Origin: Escherichia coli 042
GTDB taxonomy: Bacteria; Pseudomonadota; Gammaproteobacteria; Enterobacterales; Enterobacteriaceae
Strand: one strand, 5' to 3'
Length of the DNA: 64,000 nucleotides
Assembly: GCF_000027125.1 (NCBI RefSeq)
Contig: NC_017626.1
Of this stretch, positions 21,975 through 59,351 are shown piece after piece. A model generated the notes under the pieces. The model searched no databases. It was given only the letters and a program-made list of their open reading frames with translations, and was not told the origin of the DNA. Made by a program: the position numbers and the translations under genes. Numbering within the stretch: position 1 is the stretch's first letter; the number at the start of each line of letters is the position of its first letter.

Positions 21975-22367
21975 ATGAAAAGATTACGCAATAAAATGAC
22001 CACCGAAGAACTGGCTGAATGCCTCGGTGTGGCTAAACAAACTGTTAACCGTTGGATCAGAGAAAAAGGCTGGAAAACGGAAAAATTTCCTGGCGTGAAA
22101 GGCGGTCGTGCCAGACTTATTCTGGTCGATACGCAAGTTTGTGAGTTTATTCAGAACACGCCAGCCTTCCATAACACGCCGATGCTTCTGGAAGCCGAAG
22201 AACCCCTTGCCGAATACGCACCGGGTATTCGCACCCCTGCTTATCGGCAAATCATCAGCGCAATAGACAACATGACTCATAGCGAGCAGGAAAAAGTTGC
22301 GCAATTTTTGTCACGCGAAGGAATTCGTCATTTCCTTGCTCGTCTCGACATAGATGAATCAGCATAA
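21975..22367 (+). CDS. yfeD: small putative DNA-binding protein, paralog of yfeC
   Basis: 130-aa ORF; aligns along its length with YfeC (MTTEELAECLGVAKQTVNRWIREKGW... versus MTPDELARLTGYSRQTINKWVRKEGW...). Confidence 0.8.
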   Translation: MKRLRNKMTTEELAECLGVAKQTVNRWIREKGWKTEKFPGVKGGRARLILVDTQVCEFIQNTPAFHNTPMLLEAEEPLAEYAPGIRTPAYRQIISAIDNMTHSEQEKVAQFLSREGIRHFLARLDIDESA

Positions 22368-24609: not shown

Positions 24610-24951
24610 ATGGCCACTATCTCTCCAACTTCAATTCCTTCCATACAAACACAGAGTAGTAACAGGGCATCAGAAGGTAGCGATGTTGCTTCACAAATTG
24701 CGCGGATAAGTCAGCAAATCATCAAACTCACTCAACAAATTAAAGAGATTGCAGACACTAGCGGCAGTGCTGAAGACAAGCAAAAACAGGCCGAATTGAT
24801 TCAGCAGCAAATCACCCTACTGGAAACACAACTGGCGCAGTTGCAAAGACAGCAGGCAGAAAAAGCGCAGGAGAAAGAGCAGCGTTTGTCTCTGAATGCA
24901 TCCCTTCCAAATCCTGTTGAAAAAACGACTCAGATCGATATCTATATCTGA
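24610..24951 (+). CDS. orphan Q/E-rich coiled-coil protein, possibly FlxA-like (113 aa)
   Basis: ORF with GAGGA SD 7 nt upstream; Ser/Thr-rich N-terminus, heptad-like Q/L/I repeats, C-terminal QIDIYI; FlxA-like call is from memory only. Confidence 0.5.
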
Positions 24952-30486: not shown

Positions 30487-31248
30487 ATGGTTTCATCATT
30501 CACATCTGCCCCACGCAGCGGTTTTTACTATTTTGCGCAAGGCTGGAAGCTCGTCTCGCAACCTGGGATTCGGCGTTTCGTTATTTTACCGCTGCTGGTC
30601 AATATTTTGTTGATGGGGGGCGCATTCTGGTGGCTCTTTACGCAACTCGATGTCTGGATCCCGACTCTCATGAGTTATGTTCCGGACTGGTTACAATGGC
30701 TGAGCTATCTGTTGTGGCCTCTGGCAGTCATCTCCGTGCTGTTAGTGTTTGGCTATTTCTTCTCAACGATTGCTAACTGGATTGCCGCTCCGTTTAACGG
30801 TTTATTGGCTGAACAACTGGAAGCACGATTGACTGGCGCTACACCGCCAGATACCGGGATTTTCGGTATCATGAAAGATGTGCCGCGAATCATGAAACGC
30901 GAATGGCAAAAATTTGCCTGGTATCTGCCGCGCGCAATTGTATTACTAATTCTTTACTTCATCCCTGGTATTGGGCAAACCGTCGCGCCGGTACTGTGGT
31001 TCCTGTTTAGCGCCTGGATGTTAGCCATCCAGTATTGCGATTACCCCTTCGATAACCACAAAGTGCCGTTTAAAGAGATGCGCACCGCCCTGCGCACACG
31101 CAAAATCACCAATATGCAGTTTGGTGCTTTAACCAGCCTGTTTACGATGATCCCGCTGCTTAATCTGTTCATCATGCCCGTTGCCGTTTGTGGTGCGACG
31201 GCGATGTGGGTCGATTGCTATCGCGATAAACACGCGATGTGGCGGTAA
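30487..31248 (+). CDS. cysZ: sulfate transporter CysZ
   Basis: 253-aa membrane ORF recognised as CysZ. Confidence 0.9.
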
Positions 31249-31432
31249 CAATCTACCGGTTATTTTGTAAACCGCTTGTGTGAAACAGGGGTGGCTTATG
31301 CCGCCCCTTATTCCATCTTGCATGTCATTATTTCCCTTCTGCATATAGATATGCTAAATCCTTACTTCCGCATATTCTCTGAGCGGGTATGCTAGCTGTT
31401 GTATCCCAATTTCATACAGTTAAGGACAGGCC

Positions 31433-32404
31433 ATGAGTAAGATTTTTGAAGATAACTCGCTGACTATCGGTCACACGCCGCTGGTTCGCCTGAATCGCAT
31501 CGGTAACGGACGCATTCTGGCGAAGGTGGAATCTCGTAACCCCAGCTTCAGCGTTAAGTGCCGTATCGGTGCCAACATGATTTGGGATGCCGAAAAGCGC
31601 GGCGTGCTGAAACCAGGCGTTGAACTGGTTGAACCAACCAGCGGTAATACCGGGATTGCACTGGCCTATGTCGCTGCCGCTCGCGGTTACAAACTCACCC
31701 TGACCATGCCAGAAACCATGAGTATTGAACGCCGCAAGCTGCTGAAAGCGTTAGGTGCAAACCTGGTGCTGACCGAAGGTGCTAAAGGCATGAAAGGCGC
31801 AATCCAAAAAGCAGAAGAAATTGTCGCCAGCAATCCAGAGAAATACCTGCTGCTGCAACAATTCAGCAATCCGGCAAACCCTGAAATTCACGAAAAAACC
31901 ACCGGTCCGGAGATCTGGGAAGATACCGACGGTCAGGTTGATGTATTTATTGCTGGCGTTGGGACTGGCGGTACGCTGACCGGCGTCAGCCGCTACATTA
32001 AAGGCACCAAAGGCAAGACCGATCTTATCTCTGTCGCCGTTGAGCCAACCGATTCTCCAGTTATCGCCCAGGCGCTGGCAGGTGAAGAGATTAAACCTGG
32101 CCCGCATAAAATTCAGGGTATTGGCGCTGGTTTTATCCCGGCGAACCTCGATCTCAAGCTGGTCGATAAAGTCATTGGCATCACCAATGAAGAAGCCATT
32201 TCTACCGCGCGTCGTCTGATGGAAGAAGAAGGTATTCTTGCAGGTATCTCTTCTGGAGCAGCTGTTGCTGCGGCGTTGAAACTACAAGAAGATGAAAGCT
32301 TTACCAACAAGAATATTGTGGTTATTCTACCGTCATCGGGTGAGCGTTATTTAAGCACCGCATTGTTTGCCGATCTCTTCACTGAGAAAGAATTGCAACA
32401 GTAA
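31433..32404 (+). CDS. cysK: cysteine synthase A (O-acetylserine sulfhydrylase A)
   Basis: 323-aa ORF recognised as CysK. Confidence 0.95.
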
Positions 32405-32426
32405 TGCCAGCTTGTTAAAAATGCGT

Positions 32427-32455
32427 AAAAAAGCACCTTTTCAGGTGCTTTTTTG
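32427..32455 (+). terminator. rho-independent terminator after cysK
   Basis: aaaaaagcacc-ttttca-ggtgcttttttg. Confidence 0.8.
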
Positions 32456-32787
32456 TGGCCTGCTTCAAACTTTCGCCCCTCCTGGCATTGATTCAGCCTG
32501 TCGGAACTGGTATTTAACCAGACTAATTATTTTGATGCGCGAAATTAATCGTTACAGGAAAAGCCAAAGCTGAATCGATTTTATGATTTGGTTCAATTCT
32601 TCCTTTAGCGGCATAATGTTTAATGACGTACGAAACGTCAGCGGTCAACACCCGCCAGCAATGGACTGTATTGCGCTCTTCGTGCGTCGCGTCTGTTAAA
32701 AACTGGCGCTAACAATACAGGCTAAAGTCGAACCGCCAGGCTAGACTTTAGTTCCACAACACTAAACCTATAAGTTGGGGAAATACA

Positions 32788-33045
32788 ATGTTCCAGCAAG
32801 AAGTTACCATTACCGCTCCGAACGGTCTGCACACCCGCCCTGCTGCCCAGTTTGTAAAAGAAGCTAAGGGCTTCACTTCTGAAATTACTGTGACTTCCAA
32901 CGGCAAAAGCGCCAGCGCGAAAAGCCTGTTTAAACTGCAGACTCTGGGCCTGACTCAAGGTACCGTTGTGACTATCTCCGCAGAAGGCGAAGACGAGCAG
33001 AAAGCGGTTGAACATCTGGTTAAACTGATGGCGGAACTCGAGTAA
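32788..33045 (+). CDS. ptsH: PTS phosphocarrier protein HPr
   Basis: 85-aa [26 protein letters not shown]..., canonical HPr. Confidence 0.97.
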
Positions 33046-33089
33046 TTTCCCGGGTTCTTTTAAAAATCAGTCACAAGTAAGGTAGGGTT

Positions 33090-34817
33090 ATGATTTCAGG
33101 CATTTTAGCATCCCCGGGTATCGCTTTCGGTAAAGCTCTGCTTCTGAAAGAAGACGAAATTGTCATTGACCGGAAAAAAATTTCTGCCGACCAGGTTGAT
33201 CAGGAAGTTGAACGTTTTCTGAGCGGTCGTGCCAAGGCATCAGCCCAGCTGGAAACGATCAAAACGAAAGCTGGTGAAACGTTCGGTGAAGAAAAAGAAG
33301 CCATCTTTGAAGGGCATATTATGCTGCTCGAAGATGAGGAGCTGGAGCAGGAAATCATAGCCCTGATTAAAGATAAGCACATGACAGCTGACGCAGCTGC
33401 TCATGAAGTTATCGAAGGTCAGGCTTCTGCCCTGGAAGAGCTGGATGATGAATACCTGAAAGAACGTGCGGCTGACGTACGTGATATCGGTAAGCGCCTG
33501 CTGCGCAACATCCTGGGCCTGAAGATTATCGACCTGAGCGCCATTCAGGATGAAGTCATTCTGGTTGCCGCTGACCTGACGCCGTCCGAAACCGCACAGC
33601 TGAACCTGAAGAAGGTGCTGGGTTTCATCACCGACGCGGGTGGCCGTACTTCCCACACCTCTATCATGGCGCGTTCTCTGGAACTGCCTGCTATCGTGGG
33701 TACCGGTAGCGTCACCTCTCAGGTGAAAAATGACGACTATCTGATTCTGGATGCCGTAAATAATCAGGTTTACGTCAATCCAACCAACGAAGTTATTGAT
33801 AAAATGCGCGCTGTTCAGGAGCAAGTGGCTTCTGAAAAAGCAGAGCTTGCTAAACTGAAAGATCTGCCAGCTATTACGCTGGACGGTCACCAGGTAGAAG
33901 TGTGCGCTAACATTGGTACGGTTCGTGACGTTGAAGGTGCAGAGCGTAACGGCGCTGAAGGCGTTGGTCTGTATCGTACTGAGTTCCTGTTCATGGACCG
34001 CGACGCGCTGCCCACTGAAGAAGAACAGTTTGCTGCTTACAAAGCAGTGGCTGAAGCGTGTGGCTCGCAGGCGGTTATCGTTCGTACCATGGACATCGGC
34101 GGCGACAAAGAGCTGCCATACATGAACTTCCCGAAAGAAGAAAACCCGTTCCTCGGCTGGCGCGCTATCCGTATCGCGATGGATCGTAAAGAGATCCTGC
34201 GCGATCAGCTCCGCGCTATCCTGCGTGCCTCGGCTTTCGGTAAATTGCGCATTATGTTCCCGATGATCATCTCTGTTGAAGAAGTGCGTGCACTGCGCAA
34301 AGAGATCGAAATCTACAAACAGGAACTGCGCGACGAAGGTAAAGCGTTTGACGAGTCAATTGAAATCGGCGTAATGGTGGAAACACCGGCTGCCGCAACA
34401 ATTGCACGTCATTTAGCCAAAGAAGTTGATTTCTTTAGTATCGGCACCAATGATTTAACGCAGTACACTCTGGCAGTTGACCGTGGTAATGATATGATTT
34501 CACACCTTTACCAGCCAATGTCACCGTCCGTGCTGAACTTGATCAAGCAAGTTATTGATGCTTCTCATGCTGAAGGCAAATGGACTGGCATGTGTGGTGA
34601 GCTTGCTGGCGATGAACGTGCTACACTTCTGTTGCTGGGGATGGGTCTGGACGAATTCTCTATGAGCGCCATTTCTATCCCGCGCATTAAGAAGATTATC
34701 CGTAACACGAACTTCGAAGATGCGAAGGTGTTAGCAGAGCAGGCTCTTGCTCAACCGACAACGGACGAGTTAATGACGCTGGTTAACAAGTTCATTGAAG
34801 AAAAAACAATCTGCTAA
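33090..34817 (+). CDS. ptsI: PTS Enzyme I
   Basis: 575-aa ORF recognised as PtsI. Confidence 0.97.
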
Positions 34818-34857
34818 TCCACGAGATGCGGCCCAATTTACTGCTTAGGAGAAGATC

Positions 34858-35367
34858 ATGGGTTTGTTCGATAAACTGAAATCTCTGGTTTCCGACGACA
34901 AGAAGGATACCGGAACTATTGAGATCATTGCTCCGCTCTCTGGCGAGATCGTCAATATCGAAGACGTGCCGGATGTCGTTTTTGCGGAAAAAATCGTTGG
35001 TGATGGCATTGCTATCAAACCAACTGGAAACAAAATGGTCGCGCCTGTAGACGGCACCATTGGTAAAATCTTTGAAACCAACCACGCGTTCTCTATCGAA
35101 TCTGATAGCGGCGTTGAACTGTTCGTCCACTTCGGTATCGACACCGTTGAACTGAAAGGCGAAGGCTTCAAGCGTATTGCTGAAGAAGGTCAGCGCGTGA
35201 AAGTTGGCGATACTGTCATTGAATTCGATCTGCCGCTGCTGGAAGAGAAAGCCAAGTCTACCCTGACTCCGGTTGTTATCTCCAACATGGACGAAATCAA
35301 AGAACTGATCAAACTGTCCGGTAGCGTAACCGTGGGTGAAACCCCGGTTATCCGCATCAAGAAGTAA
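34858..35367 (+). CDS. crr: glucose-specific PTS EIIA (EIIA-Glc)
   Basis: 169-aa ORF recognised as Crr. Confidence 0.97.
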
Positions 35368-35381
35368 TTCTTGCCGCAGTG

Positions 35382-35410
35382 AAAAATGGCGCCCATCGGC
35401 GCCATTTTTT
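35382..35410. terminator. bidirectional terminator between crr and pdxK
   Basis: aaaaatggcgcc-catc-ggcgccatttttt. Confidence 0.8.
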
Positions 35411-36260
35411 ATGCTTCCGCCAGCGGCGGCAAAATCAATTCATCGCTCTCATGCTGCTGGGTGTAGCGCATCACTTCCAGTACGCGCAACCCCGCACGGT
35501 GCACCGCATCGTTTAACGCCTTCCCTTTCAGCAAACCACTGATAAGCTGAGCACAAAACAGGTCGCCAGTCCCTTTCAGGTCGGTTTTTACCCGTGAATG
35601 GGAAATGACATTCACGCTGTCGGCAGTGACCACCACCACCTGCATCTCCTGATTTTCTTCATTACCGGAGGCGCTGGTAATCACCACCCATTTTAATGTG
35701 TCTGAAAGCAGACTTTTTGCGGCAGCAATGGCACTGTCGAGATCGCGGCAATTTTTACCGGTCAGGATTTCCAGCTCAAAAATATTGGGGGTAATTCCCT
35801 GCGCCAGCGGCAGTAAATATTGTCGATACGCCTCGGGAAGGTCAGGTTTGACATAAATTCCGCTATCAATATCGCCAATCACTGGATCGACCATGATCAA
35901 TAGGTCAGGATGATCTTTGCGTAGCGCAGTCAGCCACTCGGCAAGGATTTTGATTTGCGATGCCGTTCCCATATAGCCCGTGGTTACAGCACGAAGTTGG
36001 CGCAACGCATCACGCTCCTGAAGCGCACGCAAATAGCCGCTAAACCATTCGTCCGGAATCGCACCACCGTAGAAAGTGTCATAATGCGGTGTATTGCTCA
36101 GCAATACAGTCGGCACGGCAAAGACATTCAAGCCGTTCTGTTTGATAGCAGGCACGGCAATGCTGTTGCCTACGCTGCCGTACACTACCTGCGACTGCAC
36201 GGCGACGATATCCGCCTGCAATGCCCTGCTCTTATCGTTAAACAACAACAAACTACTCAT
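35409..36260 (-). CDS. pdxK: pyridoxal/pyridoxine/pyridoxamine kinase
   Basis: 283-aa ORF recognised as PdxK. Confidence 0.92.
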
Positions 36261-36273
36261 TTAATTTTTTCTC

Positions 36274-36339
<66 letters not shown>

Positions 36340-36364
36340 CACAAAACAAGGATAAGGTAATTCA

Positions 36365-36739
36365 ATGAAGAAAATCATTTGTCTGGTCATTACGCTGCTA
36401 ATGACACTCCCCGTTTACGCGAAGTTAACTGCCCATGAAGAAGCCCGTATCAACGCCATGCTGGAGGGATTAGCACAGAAAAAGGATTTGATATTTGTGC
36501 GTAACGGCGATGAACACACCTGTGATGAAGCGGTTTCCCACCTGCGTCTGAAGCTCGGCAACACGCGCAACCGCATTGACACCGCCGAGCAGTTTATTGA
36601 TAAGGTGGCCTCGTCGTCATCGATTACCGGGAAGCCGTATATCGTGAAGATGCCCGGTAAAAGCGATGAGAACGCACAACCTTTTTTACATGCGCTAATT
36701 GCGCAGACGGATAAAACGGTGCCTGCGGAAGGGAATTAA
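36365..36739 (+). CDS. yfeK: uncharacterised secreted protein
   Basis: 124-aa ORF with signal peptide [19 protein letters not shown]; recognised as YfeK. Confidence 0.8.
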
Positions 36740-36771
36740 TCCGCTCTGGCAAGGTAGTTACAGGAGGTAAC

Positions 36772-37506
36772 ATGAAAAAATGCTTTATTTATAACGATGA
36801 AAAATCGAATAAATTTTGGTGGATAGATTACAAAGAGGATAGTTTAGCGGTCAACTATGGCAAGGTAGGTAGTATTGGTAAATTCCAGACAAAAGAGTTC
36901 GATAATGAAGAACAGTGTCTGAAAGCAGCCAGTAAATTGATTGCCGCAAAAATGAAGAAAGGCTATCAAGAAGATCCAAACGTTAACTTCATGGATCGCT
37001 ACTATTTTGATGATGAAGAAATTGGGTTACATGTTAAAACGTCACACCCAAACTTCCAGTGCCATTTTACTGATCCACTTTATATGTGTTGCTGGGATGA
37101 AGAATCTCCTTTTGGCAGCGATGAAGGTGCTGATGCTCTAAACGTTCTTGAAAATAGCCTCCGTAAAGAGCCGGATCTGGACTGTGCTGATTTCCCTCAA
37201 ATGTTAATTGAAACTGTGTGGGGTATGAAATACATCGCTATGGACAGTATTCTTGAAGAGGATGTTCGTGCGCAATTACTAGTCGATGAAATGAGCACTA
37301 TCCAGAGCAATATGATTACCTACGCGACTGCATTCGGTCAGATTAAAGTCATGGGTAAAATCTCCCATAAACTTAAAAAGATGGGACTCAATGCACTAGC
37401 GCGTCATCAGCTTACCGCAAAAATTCTTCAATGGGGTGACGGTCAGGACTCACCAATACTTCAAAAAATGATTGACGATCTAACCGCTTTTCCACACGAA
37501 AATTAA
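36772..37506 (+). CDS. yfeS: WGR-domain protein of unknown function
   Basis: 244-aa ORF recognised as YfeS; coding sequence is visibly AT-rich. Confidence 0.8.
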   Translation: MKKCFIYNDEKSNKFWWIDYKEDSLAVNYGKVGSIGKFQTKEFDNEEQCLKAASKLIAAKMKKGYQEDPNVNFMDRYYFDDEEIGLHVKTSHPNFQCHFTDPLYMCCWDEESPFGSDEGADALNVLENSLRKEPDLDCADFPQMLIETVWGMKYIAMDSILEEDVRAQLLVDEMSTIQSNMITYATAFGQIKVMGKISHKLKKMGLNALARHQLTAKILQWGDGQDSPILQKMIDDLTAFPHEN

Positions 37507-37557
37507 ATACTGTATTTGCCGGCAGCAACAACTGTTGACAAAGTGCGCTCTGTTTAT

Positions 37558-37655
37558 GCCGGATGCGGCGCAAACGCCTTATCCGGCCTACAAAATCATG
37601 CTAATTCAATATATTGCAGAAATATCGTAGGCCTGATAAGCGTAGCGCATCAGGC
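37558..37655. repeat. REP pair (BIME) between yfeS and cysM
   Basis: gccggatgcggcgcaaacgccttatccggcctac and gtaggcctgataagcgtagcgcatcaggc. Confidence 0.7.
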
Positions 37656-37694
37656 AGTTTTGCATTTGTCATCAATCTCAAGTGCTATTAATCC

Positions 37695-38606
37695 TTAAAT
37701 CCCCGCCCCCTGGCTAAAATGCTCTTCCCCAAACACCCCGGTAGAAAGGTAGCGATCGCCGCGATCGCAGATGATCGCGACCACCACCGCGCCGGGGTTA
37801 GCTTTTGCCACGCGCAGTGCTCCGGCAACCGCGCCGCCGGAGCTGACGCCACAGAATATTCCTTCCCGCACTGCCAGTTCGCGCATGGTGTTTTCCGCTT
37901 CTCGCTGATGAATATCCAGCACCTCATCCACCAGAGAAGCGTTGAAAATCCCCGGCAGATATTCCGCAGGCCAGCGGCGAATGCCGGGAATGCTACTGCC
38001 CTCTTCCGGCTGCAGGCCAACAATGGTCACCGGTTTGGATTGTTCGCGCATAAAGCGTGAAACGCCGGTGATAGTGCCGGTTGTTCCCATGCTGGAGACA
38101 AAATGGGTAATGCGCCCGCCAGTTTGCTGCCAGATTTCCGGCCCGGTGGTGGTGTAATGGGCGTAGGGATTATCAGGATTATTGAACTGATCGAGCAGCT
38201 TTCCTTCACCACGATTCGCCATCTCCAGCGCCAGATCGCGCGCACCTTCCATGCCCTGCTCTTTGGTGACAAGAATCAGTTCCGCACCATAAGCACGCAT
38301 CGCCGCACGGCGTTCCTGGCTCATGTTGTCGGGCATCAGCAATTTCATGCGATAGCCTTTAAGCGCGGCAATCATTGCCAGCGCAATGCCGGTGTTACCA
38401 CTGGTGGCTTCGATCAGCACGTCCCCCGGTTTAATTTCCCCGCGCTTTTCCGCCTCGACGATCATCGAAAGTGCCGCACGATCTTTTACCGAACCTGCCG
38501 GGTTATTGCCTTCCAGTTTCAACCAGATTTCACTGCCGTTATTCGGCCCCATTCGCTGCAACTTCACCAGAGGCGTATTGCCAATTGTTTGTTCTAATGT
38601 ACTCAC
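37695..38606 (-). CDS. cysM: cysteine synthase B (O-acetylserine sulfhydrylase B)
   Basis: ORF 37695..38684 trimmed to GTG 38606 (MSTLEQTIGNTPLV...) giving 303 aa. Confidence 0.88.
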   Translation of the reverse strand: MSTLEQTIGNTPLVKLQRMGPNNGSEIWLKLEGNNPAGSVKDRAALSMIVEAEKRGEIKPGDVLIEATSGNTGIALAMIAALKGYRMKLLMPDNMSQERRAAMRAYGAELILVTKEQGMEGARDLALEMANRGEGKLLDQFNNPDNPYAHYTTTGPEIWQQTGGRITHFVSSMGTTGTITGVSRFMREQSKPVTIVGLQPEEGSSIPGIRRWPAEYLPGIFNASLVDEVLDIHQREAENTMRELAVREGIFCGVSSGGAVAGALRVAKANPGAVVVAIICDRGDRYLSTGVFGEEHFSQGAGI

Positions 38607-38629
38607 GATCTCTATCCATACGTGGTGTT

Positions 38630-38665
38630 GCCTGATGCGACGCTTACGCGTCTTATCAGGCTTAC
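38630..38665. repeat. single REP element between cysA and cysM
   Basis: gcctgatgcgacgcttacgcgtcttatcaggcttac. Confidence 0.65.
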
Positions 38666-38739
38666 AGGTTACAAACCTTGCCATTAAAAAGCCCGGATCG
38701 CGGGAAGCGCCTCCGGGCGTTTAACATTCACTCAACCTA

Positions 38740-39837
38740 TCAGGCGCTTTGTGCGAGAGCAAGTTCCTCATCGCGGGTTTCAATACGCTCGTCGCCGTTA
38801 TACAGCCGCGCATGTTGCAGACCAACGAATAAACGCTCGCCACGTTGCGGGGCGTCGTCGCCGTGCATCACGACCGTCAGCGCTTCGTTGTACCACCCCA
38901 GCGGCTGCACGACTAATTGGGTGTAGTGGCCTTTCGGGCTGGCTTCCAGTACCTGTACCGGCAGCGGCGAATCGAGGCTGGTACGGCGGCTGATATCCAC
39001 TTCCCAAGGGCGCAGGAAGAGATCCACCGGCCCCTGATACGCAGGTGTGTAGCCCAGCGGCCAGCGATGCGCGCCAACATGGAACTGCCCGCCGCGAATG
39101 GTTCCCTGCAGGCGGTTCACTTCGCCCATAAATTCGAGCACAAAGCGGGTCGCTGGTTCGCGCCATACCTGATCCGGCGCATCAGACTGCTCGATATTGC
39201 CCTGGCTCATCACCACTACACGATCGGCTACTTCGGTCGCTTCTTCCTGGTCATGGGTAACGAATACGCTGGTAAATTTCAGTTCTTCATGCAGTTGACG
39301 CAACCAGCGACGCAGCTCTTTACGCACCTGCGCATCCAGCGCGCCAAACGGTTCATCAAGCAGCAGAATTTGCGGTTCCACAGCCAGCGCACGCGCCAGC
39401 GCCACGCGCTGTTTCTGCCCGCCGGAAAGCTGTGCCGGATAACGATCCGCCAGATGCGCAAGCTGCACCATCTCCAGCAATTTTGTCACTTTCGCTTTGA
39501 TGGCTGCGGCATTCGGGCGCTCGCGACGCGGCAGCACCGTCAGGCCAAAAGCGATATTGTCGAATACCGTCATATGACGGAACAGCGCGTAATGCTGGAA
39601 CACGAAACCGACTTTGCGATCGCGCGCGTGCAGACGGCTGACGTCGGTGCCGTGGAAGCGAATATGCCCGCTGGTTTGATGCTCCAGCCCAGCAATAATG
39701 CGCAGCAGCGTGGTTTTCCCGGAACCAGACGGCCCCAGCAATGCGACCATCTGACCAGAAGGAATATCCAGTGAGATATCGTTCAGCACCTGGGTGCGAC
39801 CAAAAGACTTCTTAATATTGGCAATCTCAATGCTCAT
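38740..39837 (-). CDS. cysA: sulfate/thiosulfate ABC transporter ATP-binding protein
   Basis: 365-aa ORF with Walker [10 protein letters not shown]; recognised as CysA. Confidence 0.95.
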
Positions 39838-40702
39838 GATGCTCCTCCTGCTGCGCGCGTTTTTCCTGATTCTCCAGACGCCACTGCAACATACTCTTTA
39901 AAAACAGGGTGATAATCGCCATCAGCGTCAACAACGCGGCAGCGGTAAAGGAGCCGACGGTGTTGTAGTCTTGCTCCAGCAATTCAATCTGTAACGGCAG
40001 CGAAAGTGTTTCGCCGCGAATCGAGCCGGAAACCACCGACACCGCACCAAACTCGCCAATCGCGCGGGCGTTGGTCAGCACCACGCCATAAAGCAGCGCC
40101 CAGCGAATGTTCGGCAATGTGACGCGGCGAAACATCTGCCAGCCAGACGCGCCAAGCAAAATCGCCGCTTCGTCTTCCTGGCTGCCCTGGCTTAACATCA
40201 CCGGCACCAGCTCGCGCACCACAAACGGACACGTCACAAAGATGGTGACCAGCACCATTCCCGGCCAGGAGAACATAATTTGCAGATTATGTTCATCCAG
40301 CCAGCCACCGAGCGGGCCGTTAGAGCCGTAAAACAGCAGATACACCAGACCGGCTACCACAGGCGACACGGCAAACGGAATGTCCAGCAGCGTCAGCAGT
40401 AACTGGCGTCCAGGGAAGTTAAAGCGCGTCACCAGCCAGGCCAGCAGAATGCCGAACACCAGGTTTACCGGTACGGCAATCAGCGCGATCATCACCGTCA
40501 GCCAGATGGCGTGCAGCATGTCCGGATCGGCCAGATTCTGTAAAACCGGCATCAGCCCTTTGCTGAACGCCTGTACGAAGATATAAATCATCGGCACCAG
40601 CAGGATGAACGCCGAAACCAGCATCCCGATACCAATCAGAAACCACTTGCCCCAGTTAATCGGGCGCGCGCCATAACGCTTCAATTGGGTAACTTCCGCC
40701 AT
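39827..40702 (-). CDS. cysW: sulfate/thiosulfate ABC transporter permease
   Basis: 291-aa ORF; overlaps cysA start by 11 nt. Confidence 0.95.
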
Positions 40703-41535
40703 TAATGACCTACCACACGCCGACCAAAGCGACTTTGCAGAGTGTTAATTGAGAACAACAGCAGCAGGGATGCCGCGAGGATCACCGAAGCAATCGCGCT
40801 CGCCGCCGGGTAATCAAACTCCTGCAAGCGCACAAAAATCATCAGCGACGTCACTTCCGTCTTCCAGGCGATGTTCCCGGCGATAAAAATCACCGCGCCA
40901 AACTCACCAAGACTACGAGTAAACGACAGCGCCACGCCCGCCACCAGCGCCGGAGAAAGTTCCGGCAGCACCACTTTGCAGAAACTCTGCCAGCGCGTTG
41001 CACCAAGCGTTTCTGCAGCTTCTTCATATTCCGGGCCTAACTCTTCCAGCACCGGCTGCACGGTACGCACCACAAACGGAATACTGGTAAAAGCCATCGC
41101 CACCGCAATCCCCAGCCAGGTATAGGTAACTTTGATATCAAACTTCGCCAGCCATTCACCGTAAAAACCGTTCACGGAAAAGAGCGAGGCCAGCGTTAAA
41201 CCGGCGACTGCCGTTGGCAGCGCAAAGGGTAAATCCATCAGCGCATCAAGCAGCGTGCGGCCCGGAAAGCGATAACGGGTTAAGATCCACGCCATCAGCA
41301 GGCCGAAAACGCCGTTAAAAATTGATGCCACAAACGCCGACAGCAGCGTCACTTTGTAGGCCGCGACCACCTGCGGGTTGGTGATCACCTCCCAGTACTG
41401 CGCCCAGCTCATCTCAGAGAGCTGCATCACCAGCGCGGAGAGCGGCAGCAGCAAAATCAGGCACACAAACAGCAGACTGGTGCCGAGGCTTAAGGTAAAG
41501 CCCGGCAGCACGCGTCTTGATGAAACTGCAAACAT
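40702..41535 (-). CDS. cysU: sulfate/thiosulfate ABC transporter permease
   Basis: 277-aa ORF; 1-nt overlap with cysW start. Confidence 0.95.
   Translation of the reverse strand: MFAVSSRRVLPGFTLSLGTSLLFVCLILLLPLSALVMQLSEMSWAQYWEVITNPQVVAAYKVTLLSAFVASIFNGVFGLLMAWILTRYRFPGRTLLDALMDLPFALPTAVAGLTLASLFSVNGFYGEWLAKFDIKVTYTWLGIAVAMAFTSIPFVVRTVQPVLEELGPEYEEAAETLGATRWQSFCKVVLPELSPALVAGVALSFTRSLGEFGAVIFIAGNIAWKTEVTSLMIFVRLQEFDYPAASAIASVILAASLLLLFSINTLQSRFGRRVVGH

Positions 41536-58868: not shown

Positions 58869-59351
<483 letters not shown>

Follow-up and report, generated by a model that had tools for sequence, protein, structure and literature searches.

This report concerns yfeS, an AT-rich gene of Escherichia coli, and its surroundings in a 64-kb stretch of the E. 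coli 042 chromosome that was analyzed at its full length and is hereafter referred to as the window. The order of the genes in the region of interest is crr, pdxK, yfeK, yfeS, a pair of repetitive extragenic palindromic (REP) elements, cysM, and cysA. Relevant coordinates are provided in Table 1. The window is 100% identical to the DNA of strain Ecol_316 and ∼96% identical to that of K-12. As can be seen from the table, yfeS is sandwiched between yfeK and cysM, which are core genes arranged tail-to-tail, and it follows yfeK on the same strand with a spacing of 32 bp. No integrase, transfer RNA (tRNA), insertion sequence (IS), or mobility genes were observed at its borders within positions 35300-38800. 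The locus is known and annotated, and a y-gene of foreign composition followed by REP elements is ordinary as a genome feature. The evidence firmly establishes, however, that the foreign-looking unit is a single gene, that it is polymorphic for presence or absence in E. coli, that it is old and selectively maintained where present, and that its family moves between phyla.

Table 1 Features of the yfeK/yfeS/cysM region in window coordinates
Feature	Position	Strand	Remarks
crr	34858-35367	+	
pdxK	35409-36260	-	
Candidate sigma-E-type promoter	36304-36331	+	GAAACTT, 16 nucleotides, TCAAA; upstream of yfeK; read from the sequence
yfeK	36365-36739	+	small exported DUF5329 protein; core enterobacterial gene flanking the insert, not foreign DNA
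Presence/absence segment, 967 bp	36728-37694	+	last three codons and stop of yfeK, yfeS, and the REP pair; from aligned occupied and empty alleles
Direct repeat ATTAATCC, left copy, 8 bp	36735-36742	+	overlaps the yfeK stop codon
Strong Shine-Dalgarno sequence of yfeS, AGGAGG	36762-36767	+	4 nucleotides before the ATG; read from the sequence
yfeS	36772-37506	+	AT-rich single-gene cassette; 244-residue acidic cytoplasmic protein
Variant WGR domain, residues 9-70	36796-36981	+	N-Y-G-K motif in place of W-G-R
C-terminal helical domain, residues 72-244	36985-37503	+	motifs TSHPxF and PFGxDxGxD; net charge -15
REP, first arm	37558-37591	+	exact match to the REP consensus; internal hairpin
Center between the REP arms	37592-37634	+	Rfam ES036 (CssrF), 41.1 bits versus a gathering score of 37.6, E = 4e-6
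REP, second arm, inverted	37627-37655	-	none expected by chance; inverted repeat with the first REP
Direct repeat ATTAATCC, right copy, 8 bp	37687-37694	+	abuts the cysM stop codon
cysM	37695-38606	-	stop codon at 37695-37697

The GC content and the GC content at third codon positions (GC3) were computed for 58 nonoverlapping open reading frames (ORFs), such that the "genomic range" referred to here is that of the window only. The mean values are 53.3% (standard deviation of 3.9) for GC and 58.2% (standard deviation of 6.5) for GC3, and the GC content of the entire window is 52.7%. With a GC content of 39.2% and a GC3 of 37.1%, yfeS is the lowest of the 58 ORFs on both counts (z = -3.6 and -3.3) and lies outside the window range. 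The sliding GC profile reaches its minimum of 36% at positions 36750-37049. The corresponding values for yfeK are 49.3% and 58.4% (z = -1.0 and 0.0). These are ordinary, and therefore the AT-rich unit is yfeS alone. The initial annotation had described an AT-rich yfeK-yfeS islet; its contrast with the neighboring genes holds for yfeS but not for yfeK. The next most deviant ORFs in the window are those at 24610-24951 and 21975-22367, with GC contents of 44.2% and 46.8% and GC3 values of 41% and 43%, respectively.

The distribution of the gene was determined in 5426 complete E. coli genomes, using as queries the whole locus, yfeS alone, and the junction of a strain lacking yfeS. The whole-locus query was matched in only ∼1370 genomes. 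The yfeS gene was found in 1386 genomes (full length in all but four of these, 1382), and an intact empty junction, at which yfeK stands without yfeS, in 4039 (74%). Together these account for 5425 of the 5426 genomes, and the locus therefore displays a clean two-allele polymorphism. Strains K-12, W3110, a BL21 derivative, and the enterotoxigenic strain H10407 carry the gene, and O157:H7 and O55:H7 lack it. The distribution is thus patchy, with presence and absence at the level of the strain. Alignment of the occupied and empty alleles delineates a segment of 967 bp, which in the empty allele is replaced by 8 bp (CAATAATC) at the same junction everywhere. The empty-allele version of yfeK is two codons shorter (ending in PAQ rather than PAEGN) and terminates 2 bp before the cysM stop codon. 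Up to the junction, the sequence of strain M00057 matches that of the window at 100% identity, and yet the strain has the common empty allele; recombination therefore shuffles the occupied and empty states.

The two copies of the direct repeat, ATTAATCC, are 952 bp apart and could either have arisen by duplication of the target site or represent the microhomology at which a deletion occurred. Transposon-type ends were ruled out, as neither terminal inverted repeats nor a transposase or integrase was found in or near the 967-bp segment. Simple excision and simple target duplication were likewise rejected, given that the empty allele (GCGCAATAATC directly followed by TTA) fits neither exactly. 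A seemingly divergent, plasmid-borne yfeS (NZ_CP098226.1, 68.6% identity) was also discarded. The record is 95% identical in nucleotide sequence over 10 kb to window positions 30791-40856 and is a frameshift-ridden copy of this chromosomal region, and the low yfeS identity is therefore an artifact. Although PLSDB lists this 50-kb entry as an E. coli plasmid, it appears to be a chromosomal fragment that was mis-assembled or mis-labeled.

In contrast to yfeS, the neighboring yfeK gene is nearly ubiquitous in E. coli (5425 of the 5426 genomes), and its homologs are found throughout the Enterobacteriaceae with amino acid sequence identities of 64-85% (75-81% in Klebsiella, 74% in Salmonella, 73% in Citrobacter, and 69% in Enterobacter). 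YfeK matches the Pfam family DUF5329 with an E value of 1.9e-31 (108.6 bits versus a threshold of 27) and NCBIfam PRK10318.1-3 with 278.5 bits (threshold of 171). Its N-terminus resembles a Sec signal peptide. On the basis of these features YfeK is predicted to be a small secreted protein, in keeping with its first description.

In K-12, yfeK and yfeS have been reported to constitute one unit of the sigma-E regulon that is read as a single transcript (PMC2731931, PMC2685091, PMC11502571), and the pair is induced both in that regulon and in restriction-enzyme-triggered death (PMC2731931, PMC2685091). In the study of the latter, over-expression of YfeK halted growth and that of YfeS was harmless (PMC2731931, PMC2685091). 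The motif GAAACTT-N16-TCAAA upstream of yfeK fits the reported sigma-E promoter, although the exact site is our assignment. A scan for sigma-70 promoters revealed none on the plus strand, and no terminator was found between the two genes. Because of this lack of a terminator, and in light of the published co-regulation, yfeS probably rides on the yfeK promoter. The shared sigma-E transcript thus looks like an inserted gene borrowing the promoter of its neighbor.

That yfeK and yfeS are a single, anciently acquired two-gene module whose products work together, as the initial annotation had it, would agree with their close spacing on one strand, with their co-transcription in the sigma-E regulon (PMC2731931, PMC2685091), and with their adjacency in Pseudocitrobacter and in a deeper enterobacterial lineage described below. 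The over-expression results lend the pair a superficial resemblance to a toxin and its antidote. The composition of yfeK, however, is normal in both GC and GC3, and the gene is distributed across the Enterobacteriaceae, standing without yfeS in 74% of the E. coli genomes as well as in Salmonella and Klebsiella. Moreover, a relative of YfeK was absent from the vicinity of the YfeS homologs in all 90 non-enterobacterial loci. YfeK carries an export signal and YfeS does not, and the two proteins are therefore expected in different compartments. Compartment and distribution together rule out a toxin-antitoxin pair, and the two-gene module is largely refuted and very improbable. That part of the proposal concerning an ancient acquisition survives for yfeS only, on the basis of its foreign composition, its patchy distribution, and the orthologs in the same slot. 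Given that yfeK is core and yfeS accessory, the two genes are best considered separately when sigma-E regulon data or phenotypes based on K-12 are interpreted.

The REP pair that had been noted after yfeS is indeed present. The REP consensus occurs six times in the window versus zero copies expected. The pair consists of two inverted REP copies and is repeated elsewhere in the genome, as is characteristic of a bacterial interspersed mosaic element (BIME): queries that included it matched a median of 21 places per E. coli genome. Rfam matches of the naRNA4-like type fall on the same stretch, 37558-37655, and the Rfam family ES036 (CssrF) may simply describe a BIME-derived transcript. No REP element is present between pdxK and yfeK, however. 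Such elements occur on the downstream side of yfeS only, and the earlier description of an islet bounded by REP elements is therefore wrong.

Additional REP-like sequences were observed elsewhere in the window. A palindrome lies between cysM and cysA (38626-38665), where positions 38629-38661 match Rfam naRNA4 below the threshold. Five tandem REP copies with a period of ∼100 bp, each with two mismatches to the REP pattern, are located at 58870-59302; a 104-residue ORF that overlaps them (58904-59218, GC content of 60.6%) is probably not a gene.

Orthologs of yfeS in the same chromosomal slot provide a measure of its age. In Pseudocitrobacter, YfeS is encoded between yfeK and cysM with 93-94% amino acid identity, a GC content of 40%, and an accompanying BIME. 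A 1.1-kb metagenome contig (SRR33112897_261595, referred to here as L101) contains the 3' end of yfeK (89% amino acid identity), a complete yfeS, and the 3' end of cysM (90% amino acid identity) but no BIME. Because it is absent from this deep orthologous locus, the BIME arrived after yfeS. The L101 gene has a GC content of 38.5%, and its product is 65% identical to E. coli YfeS. The two are mutual nearest relatives, with identities to all other sequences not exceeding 58%. In addition, a stretch of the form GTTAC[A/G]GGAG..AACATG precedes yfeS in both. In the comparison of L101 with E. coli, synonymous sites have reached saturation both in yfeS and in the fragment of yfeK (proportions of differing synonymous sites of 0.78 and 0.75), and the number of synonymous substitutions per site (dS) in cysM is 0.77. 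The synonymous divergence between L101 and E. coli is at least as large as that against Salmonella or Klebsiella.

Neither of the latter genera has yfeS at this position: the slot between yfeK and cysM holds an unrelated ORF of 116 residues in Salmonella and a SnoaL-like gene in Klebsiella. The yfeK/cysM slot is variable among enterobacterial genera. The gene content between pdxK and yfeK (window 35409-36364 including pdxK) also varies, and this is a second variable slot beside the first: Salmonella and Klebsiella have a GntR/aminotransferase gene together with a GATase gene, and Pseudocitrobacter has a SnoaL-like gene. In these comparisons (L097, L098, and L099), pdxK diverges far more between genera (66-73% amino acid identity) than does cysM or cysA (94-97%). 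In the Salmonella enterica locus (L097, 5027-6126) cysA is split into ORFs of 278 and 88 residues, which reflects either a pseudogene or a sequencing error.

The GC content of yfeS is 38-40% in E. coli, Pseudocitrobacter, and L101 alike, despite its age. Strong AT-richness can thus persist in a gene that has occupied the same slot since the enterobacterial genera diverged, and for that reason low GC content is a poor clock for acquisition.

The ratio of nonsynonymous to synonymous substitutions (dN/dS) for yfeS is 0.13-0.33, and the gene is therefore under purifying selection. These values bear upon the possibility that yfeS is functionless in E. coli, a neutral remnant of an old transfer that some lineages have retained by chance and linkage. 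Such a view would accommodate its absence from 75% of the strains, the lack of a known strong phenotype, and its occasional decay. Truncated forms occur in Shigella and in some E. coli, and in Escherichia sp. MOD1-EC7003 (L025, a contig of 585 bp) only the 3' 60% of the gene remains, with 89% nucleotide identity. The ends of that contig (1-55 and 523-585) are unrelated and resemble repeat or IS boundaries, and yfeS seems to have been disrupted in this cryptic lineage by an insertion-like sequence. A neutral leftover is difficult to reconcile, however, not only with the dN/dS ratio but also with the full-length reading frame in nearly every carrier, with the 20 invariant and 36 nearly invariant positions that the YfeS family retains across phyla, and with the survival of the gene through a divergence that saturated synonymous sites. 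In addition, the phenotype of a deletion, sensitivity to boric acid, is partly complementable; it is the only one reported for the protein, which is listed as of unknown function (PMC11502571). We consider it improbable that yfeS is without function.

The simplest reading of the genetic data is one old acquisition in the slot followed by vertical descent with repeated loss, the BIME being added later. Two observations weigh against so simple a history. First, the synonymous divergence of yfeS is three to six times below that of its flanks. Between E. coli alleles, dS is 0.06 for yfeS versus 0.16-0.30 for cysM and yfeK, and between E. coli and Pseudocitrobacter it is 0.14-0.19 versus 0.43-1.27. 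Consequently, the history must also include either a subsequent lateral spread or a re-acquisition through homologous recombination. The pattern suggests that the segment later spread laterally among E. coli and Pseudocitrobacter lineages by recombination in the flanks. Second, the empty allele is neither an exact excision product nor a clean target site, and thus the two alleles must have diverged since the event.

The YfeS protein contains two domains. Residues 9-70 match the WGR family (Pfam PF05406) with an E value of 2e-17 (63.5 bits versus a cut-off of 22), and the profile is matched in 52 of 52 family members. A model calculated with AlphaFold2 from the 52-sequence alignment has a predicted local distance difference test score of 96 and a predicted template modeling score of 0.92. 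In this model the WGR domain (residues 1-70), characterized by a four-stranded β-sheet and an α-helix, packs against an all-helical domain. It displays the same fold as the solved WGR domains (Protein Data Bank (PDB) entries 2ra8, 2eoc, and 2cr9), with 44% identity to the WGR domain of the Bacteroides fragilis protein 2ra8. The original assignment of YfeS as a WGR-domain protein thus stands. The eponymous motif, however, is not found: the aligned residues are N-Y-G-K, with neither a tryptophan nor an arginine at that position. Gly 30 is invariant in the family, and Asn 28 and Lys 31 are nearly so.

The C-terminal domain matched no Pfam model, either alone or in the family members, and no relative in the PDB was revealed by sequence or by fold search. 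A motif similarity to DUF4259 is at most a lead, as only 2 of the 52 members gave a match (E ∼0.05) and stand-alone members gave none. A profile of the domain identified 688 representative proteins, many of them stand-alone and ∼170 residues in length, others with WGR or different N-termini. One chain of 821 residues has the arrangement DUF4240-WGR-YfeS C-domain-DUF4253. The signature of the domain is TSHPxF … [FY]YxDC.DE..PFG[SN]D.G.D.L … AFGQ.KI.G. Across the family it has a net charge of approximately -15 and an isoelectric point (pI) of 4.3-5.1. The WGR half is near neutral, and the overall pI of YfeS is 4.9. Neither a catalytic motif nor a signal peptide was found in YfeS, which is most likely a binding protein rather than an enzyme.

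The foremost alternative to a role in toxin immunity, which is taken up below, is that YfeS is a nucleic-acid-binding stress factor in which the WGR domain recognizes ends or nicks in DNA or RNA, as it does in PARP enzymes, and the helical domain recruits or regulates a partner under stress to the envelope or of another kind. The initial annotation had hinted at such a connection by way of the domain name. The W-G-R motif, however, is replaced by Y-G-K across the family. The protein is acidic, particularly in its C-terminal domain, and no nucleic acid enzyme is fused to it or consistently adjacent. Indeed, in the closest structure, 2ra8, this type of WGR domain is joined to a leucine-rich repeat, a protein-binding module, and dispensability in 75% of the strains would be odd for a core stress function. 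A nucleic acid-binding role is thus unlikely, but of the alternatives considered it carries the most weight.

Searches with YfeS yielded 83 matches in the protein collection and 173 relatives in species-representative genomes. Among the latter, the enterobacterial ones are confined to Escherichia and Pseudocitrobacter. The others belong to the Firmicutes, the Bacteroidota, Neisseria, Fusobacterium, and one archaeon. Full-length relatives beyond the enterobacteria, with both domains and 98% coverage, show identities of 30-58% and were found in Paenibacillus, Lysinibacillus, Sporosarcina, Clostridia, Bacteroides, Dysgonomonas, Porphyromonas, Flavobacterium, Neisseria, Eikenella, Fusobacterium, and Exiguobacterium, as well as in a Pseudomonas and in a metagenome-assembled genome of a methanogen. 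The nearest outside the enterobacteria are Paenibacillus and Bacteroides proteins (55-58%).

No conserved partner gene was found: 150 nonredundant neighbors matched 184 Pfam families, each at most three times, the most frequent being Ank and DUF4303 (three times) and SUKH (twice). Several of the surroundings are informative, nevertheless. A Bacteroidales homolog (P0022, 49 contigs; L008-L010) is encoded in extended arrays of small genes that share one orientation and have a GC content of 33%, located behind a tyrosine recombinase of 379 residues, and its array neighbors are Imm10, Imm19, Barstar, SUKH, DUF4304, DUF6678, and Macro. These arrays appear to match the published description of rAID-1 orphan-immunity clusters (bioRxiv 10.1101/471110). 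The Paenibacillus homolog adjoins Imm10, which is followed by DUF2750, GrpB, and NUDIX genes. Arrays near the homologs in Bacteroides, Muribaculaceae, and Ruminococcus contain Imm43, DUF4303, DUF1963, DUF4241, DUF4274, and Ank. In Neisseria sp. (L052, 5131-9623; similarly in L054-L058), a four-gene islet encoding an unknown protein of 161 residues, a YfeS-like protein, DUF6714, and DUF4303 splits gatC from gatA, which are normally in one operon. The homolog of Dysgonomonas sp. 25 (L024/L016) lies inside the trp operon, where trpC and an MFS transporter gene flank it, and is another solitary insertion among housekeeping genes. DUF4303, SUKH, and leucine-rich repeat proteins have been reported to act as the cognate immunity proteins for Rhs toxins (bioRxiv 10.64898/2026.07.13.738213).

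Single cassettes of this kind are also typical of genes for phage defense or counter-defense, which likewise accumulate in variable slots, and YfeS might function there rather than in immunity to bacterial toxins. Its patchy, mobile distribution and its variable slot between convergent core genes would be as expected. In addition, a BrxC-like gene is located in the vicinity of one homolog, the WGR part recurs in PHROG families of unknown function, and short Listeria phage records encode a relative of the C-terminal domain, with 33% identity across roughly half the length of the query. The PHROG matches are confined to the WGR region, however, and neither YfeS, its homologs, nor the C-terminal domain matched any PADLOC model, and the anti-phage defense models were rejected on this account. 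Furthermore, YfeS is not joined to a nuclease, an ATPase, or any other effector, and consistent defense-island neighbors were not seen among the 150 nonredundant neighbors. On balance, we hold a role in phage defense to be improbable.

The explanation that best accounts for the data as a whole combines an old insertion of yfeS as a single gene with a role as an orphan immunity gene. We give it about an even chance of being correct, and we are highly confident of the genetic anatomy of the insertion. According to this explanation, yfeS entered the yfeK/cysM junction of an enterobacterial ancestor long ago, bringing with it its own strong ribosome-binding site. It came from a gene pool of low GC content, with Paenibacillus and the Bacteroidales harboring its closest relatives outside the enterobacteria. 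The segment is flanked by the 8-bp direct repeat, a REP pair settled behind yfeS later, and transcription probably proceeds from the sigma-E promoter of yfeK. The segment now segregates in E. coli (∼25% occupied versus ∼75% empty) and survives in Pseudocitrobacter and one deeper enterobacterial lineage. Its product is probably an acidic, cytoplasmic, two-domain binder without a catalytic signature, belonging to a family whose members cross phyla as single genes and repeatedly lodge either in orphan-immunity arrays, of the rAID-1-like type in the Bacteroidales and as polyimmunity runs in the Firmicutes, or as small inserts between housekeeping genes. YfeS would then bind and neutralize a toxin delivered by a competitor.

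This last step, that YfeS is an orphan toxin-immunity protein, is suggested by the recurrence of the family in rAID and polyimmunity arrays together with its small, acidic, modular architecture. It is the likeliest of the roles considered but a tentative assignment, with the odds somewhat against it. A similarly guarded proposal is that the C-terminal domain family of YfeS, with its 688 representatives, is an unrecognized toxin-immunity family, and that the variant WGR domain is a common adaptor placed before interchangeable toxin-binding modules such as the YfeS C-domain or the leucine-rich repeat of 2ra8. A number of observations weigh against an immunity function. No named immunity family (Imm, SUKH, or other) in Pfam matched YfeS or its family, and the portion of text available from the immunity catalog of Zhang et al. 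2012 (PMC3482391) contains neither WGR nor YfeS. The E. coli gene lies outside any array, and no recombinase is encoded in its vicinity. Of 73 species-representative loci, only 8 (11%) are located in a run of at least six co-directional small genes, and some of these runs are ordinary operons such as ruvABC; 29 of the 73 are solitary. In the loci examined, no toxin gene was found beside a family member, the large neighbors being instead a CWB2 cell-wall protein, a BrxC-like ATPase, and a multidomain kinase. Finally, the one phenotype reported for the deletion, sensitivity to boric acid, does not suggest a connection with toxins (PMC11502571).

Should YfeS prove to be an immunity protein, K-12 would possess a single orphan immunity gene of ancient origin, integrated into the envelope-stress regulon of sigma-E, and a quarter of E. 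coli strains would be protected against a delivered toxin. The connection to immunity arrays offers a concrete and cheap hypothesis for a K-12 protein and for a widespread domain lacking a Pfam model or a structure. Only this testable hypothesis and the persistence of an old, un-ameliorated gene point beyond the ordinary.

Comparison with known systems places these observations in context. Like the orphan immunity genes of rAID-1 and polyimmunity clusters (bioRxiv 10.1101/471110; PMC3482391), which span 100-300 codons with GC contents below 41%, yfeS is short and, at 39.2%, falls below both that limit and the value for its window. It likewise belongs to a family that is mobile across phyla and encodes a small cytoplasmic binding protein without enzyme motifs. 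Homologs with 51-54% identity reside within arrays that fit rAID-1 and contain Imm10, Imm19, Barstar, and SUKH, and P0022 follows a XerD-like tyrosine recombinase amid co-directional short genes, as described for such clusters. E. coli yfeS, on the other hand, is solitary, with no recombinase, array, or intergenic repeat motif. Its family shows no homology to a named immunity family or to a toxin-adjacent immunity gene, and no cognate toxin is known.

With PARP1/2/3 and the bacterial WGR proteins (PF05406), residues 1-70 of YfeS share the fold and a clear profile match. They differ in the Y-G-K motif, in the absence of an ADP-ribosyltransferase domain, and in the acidic helical partner domain, which has no counterpart in the PDB. 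The repeat element behind yfeS is a typical E. coli BIME, with two inverted REP copies downstream of a gene, a match to the consensus, and many copies genome-wide. It is unusual only in belonging to a presence/absence segment.

Finally, yfeS resembles the small acquired islets found in convergent-gene slots of enterobacteria, which have an atypical composition, vary among strains, and differ in cargo from genus to genus. Unlike these, the yfeS segment comprises a single gene with no integrase, tRNA, or IS at its borders, and its composition is still foreign even though the insertion dates back to when the enterobacterial genera diverged.

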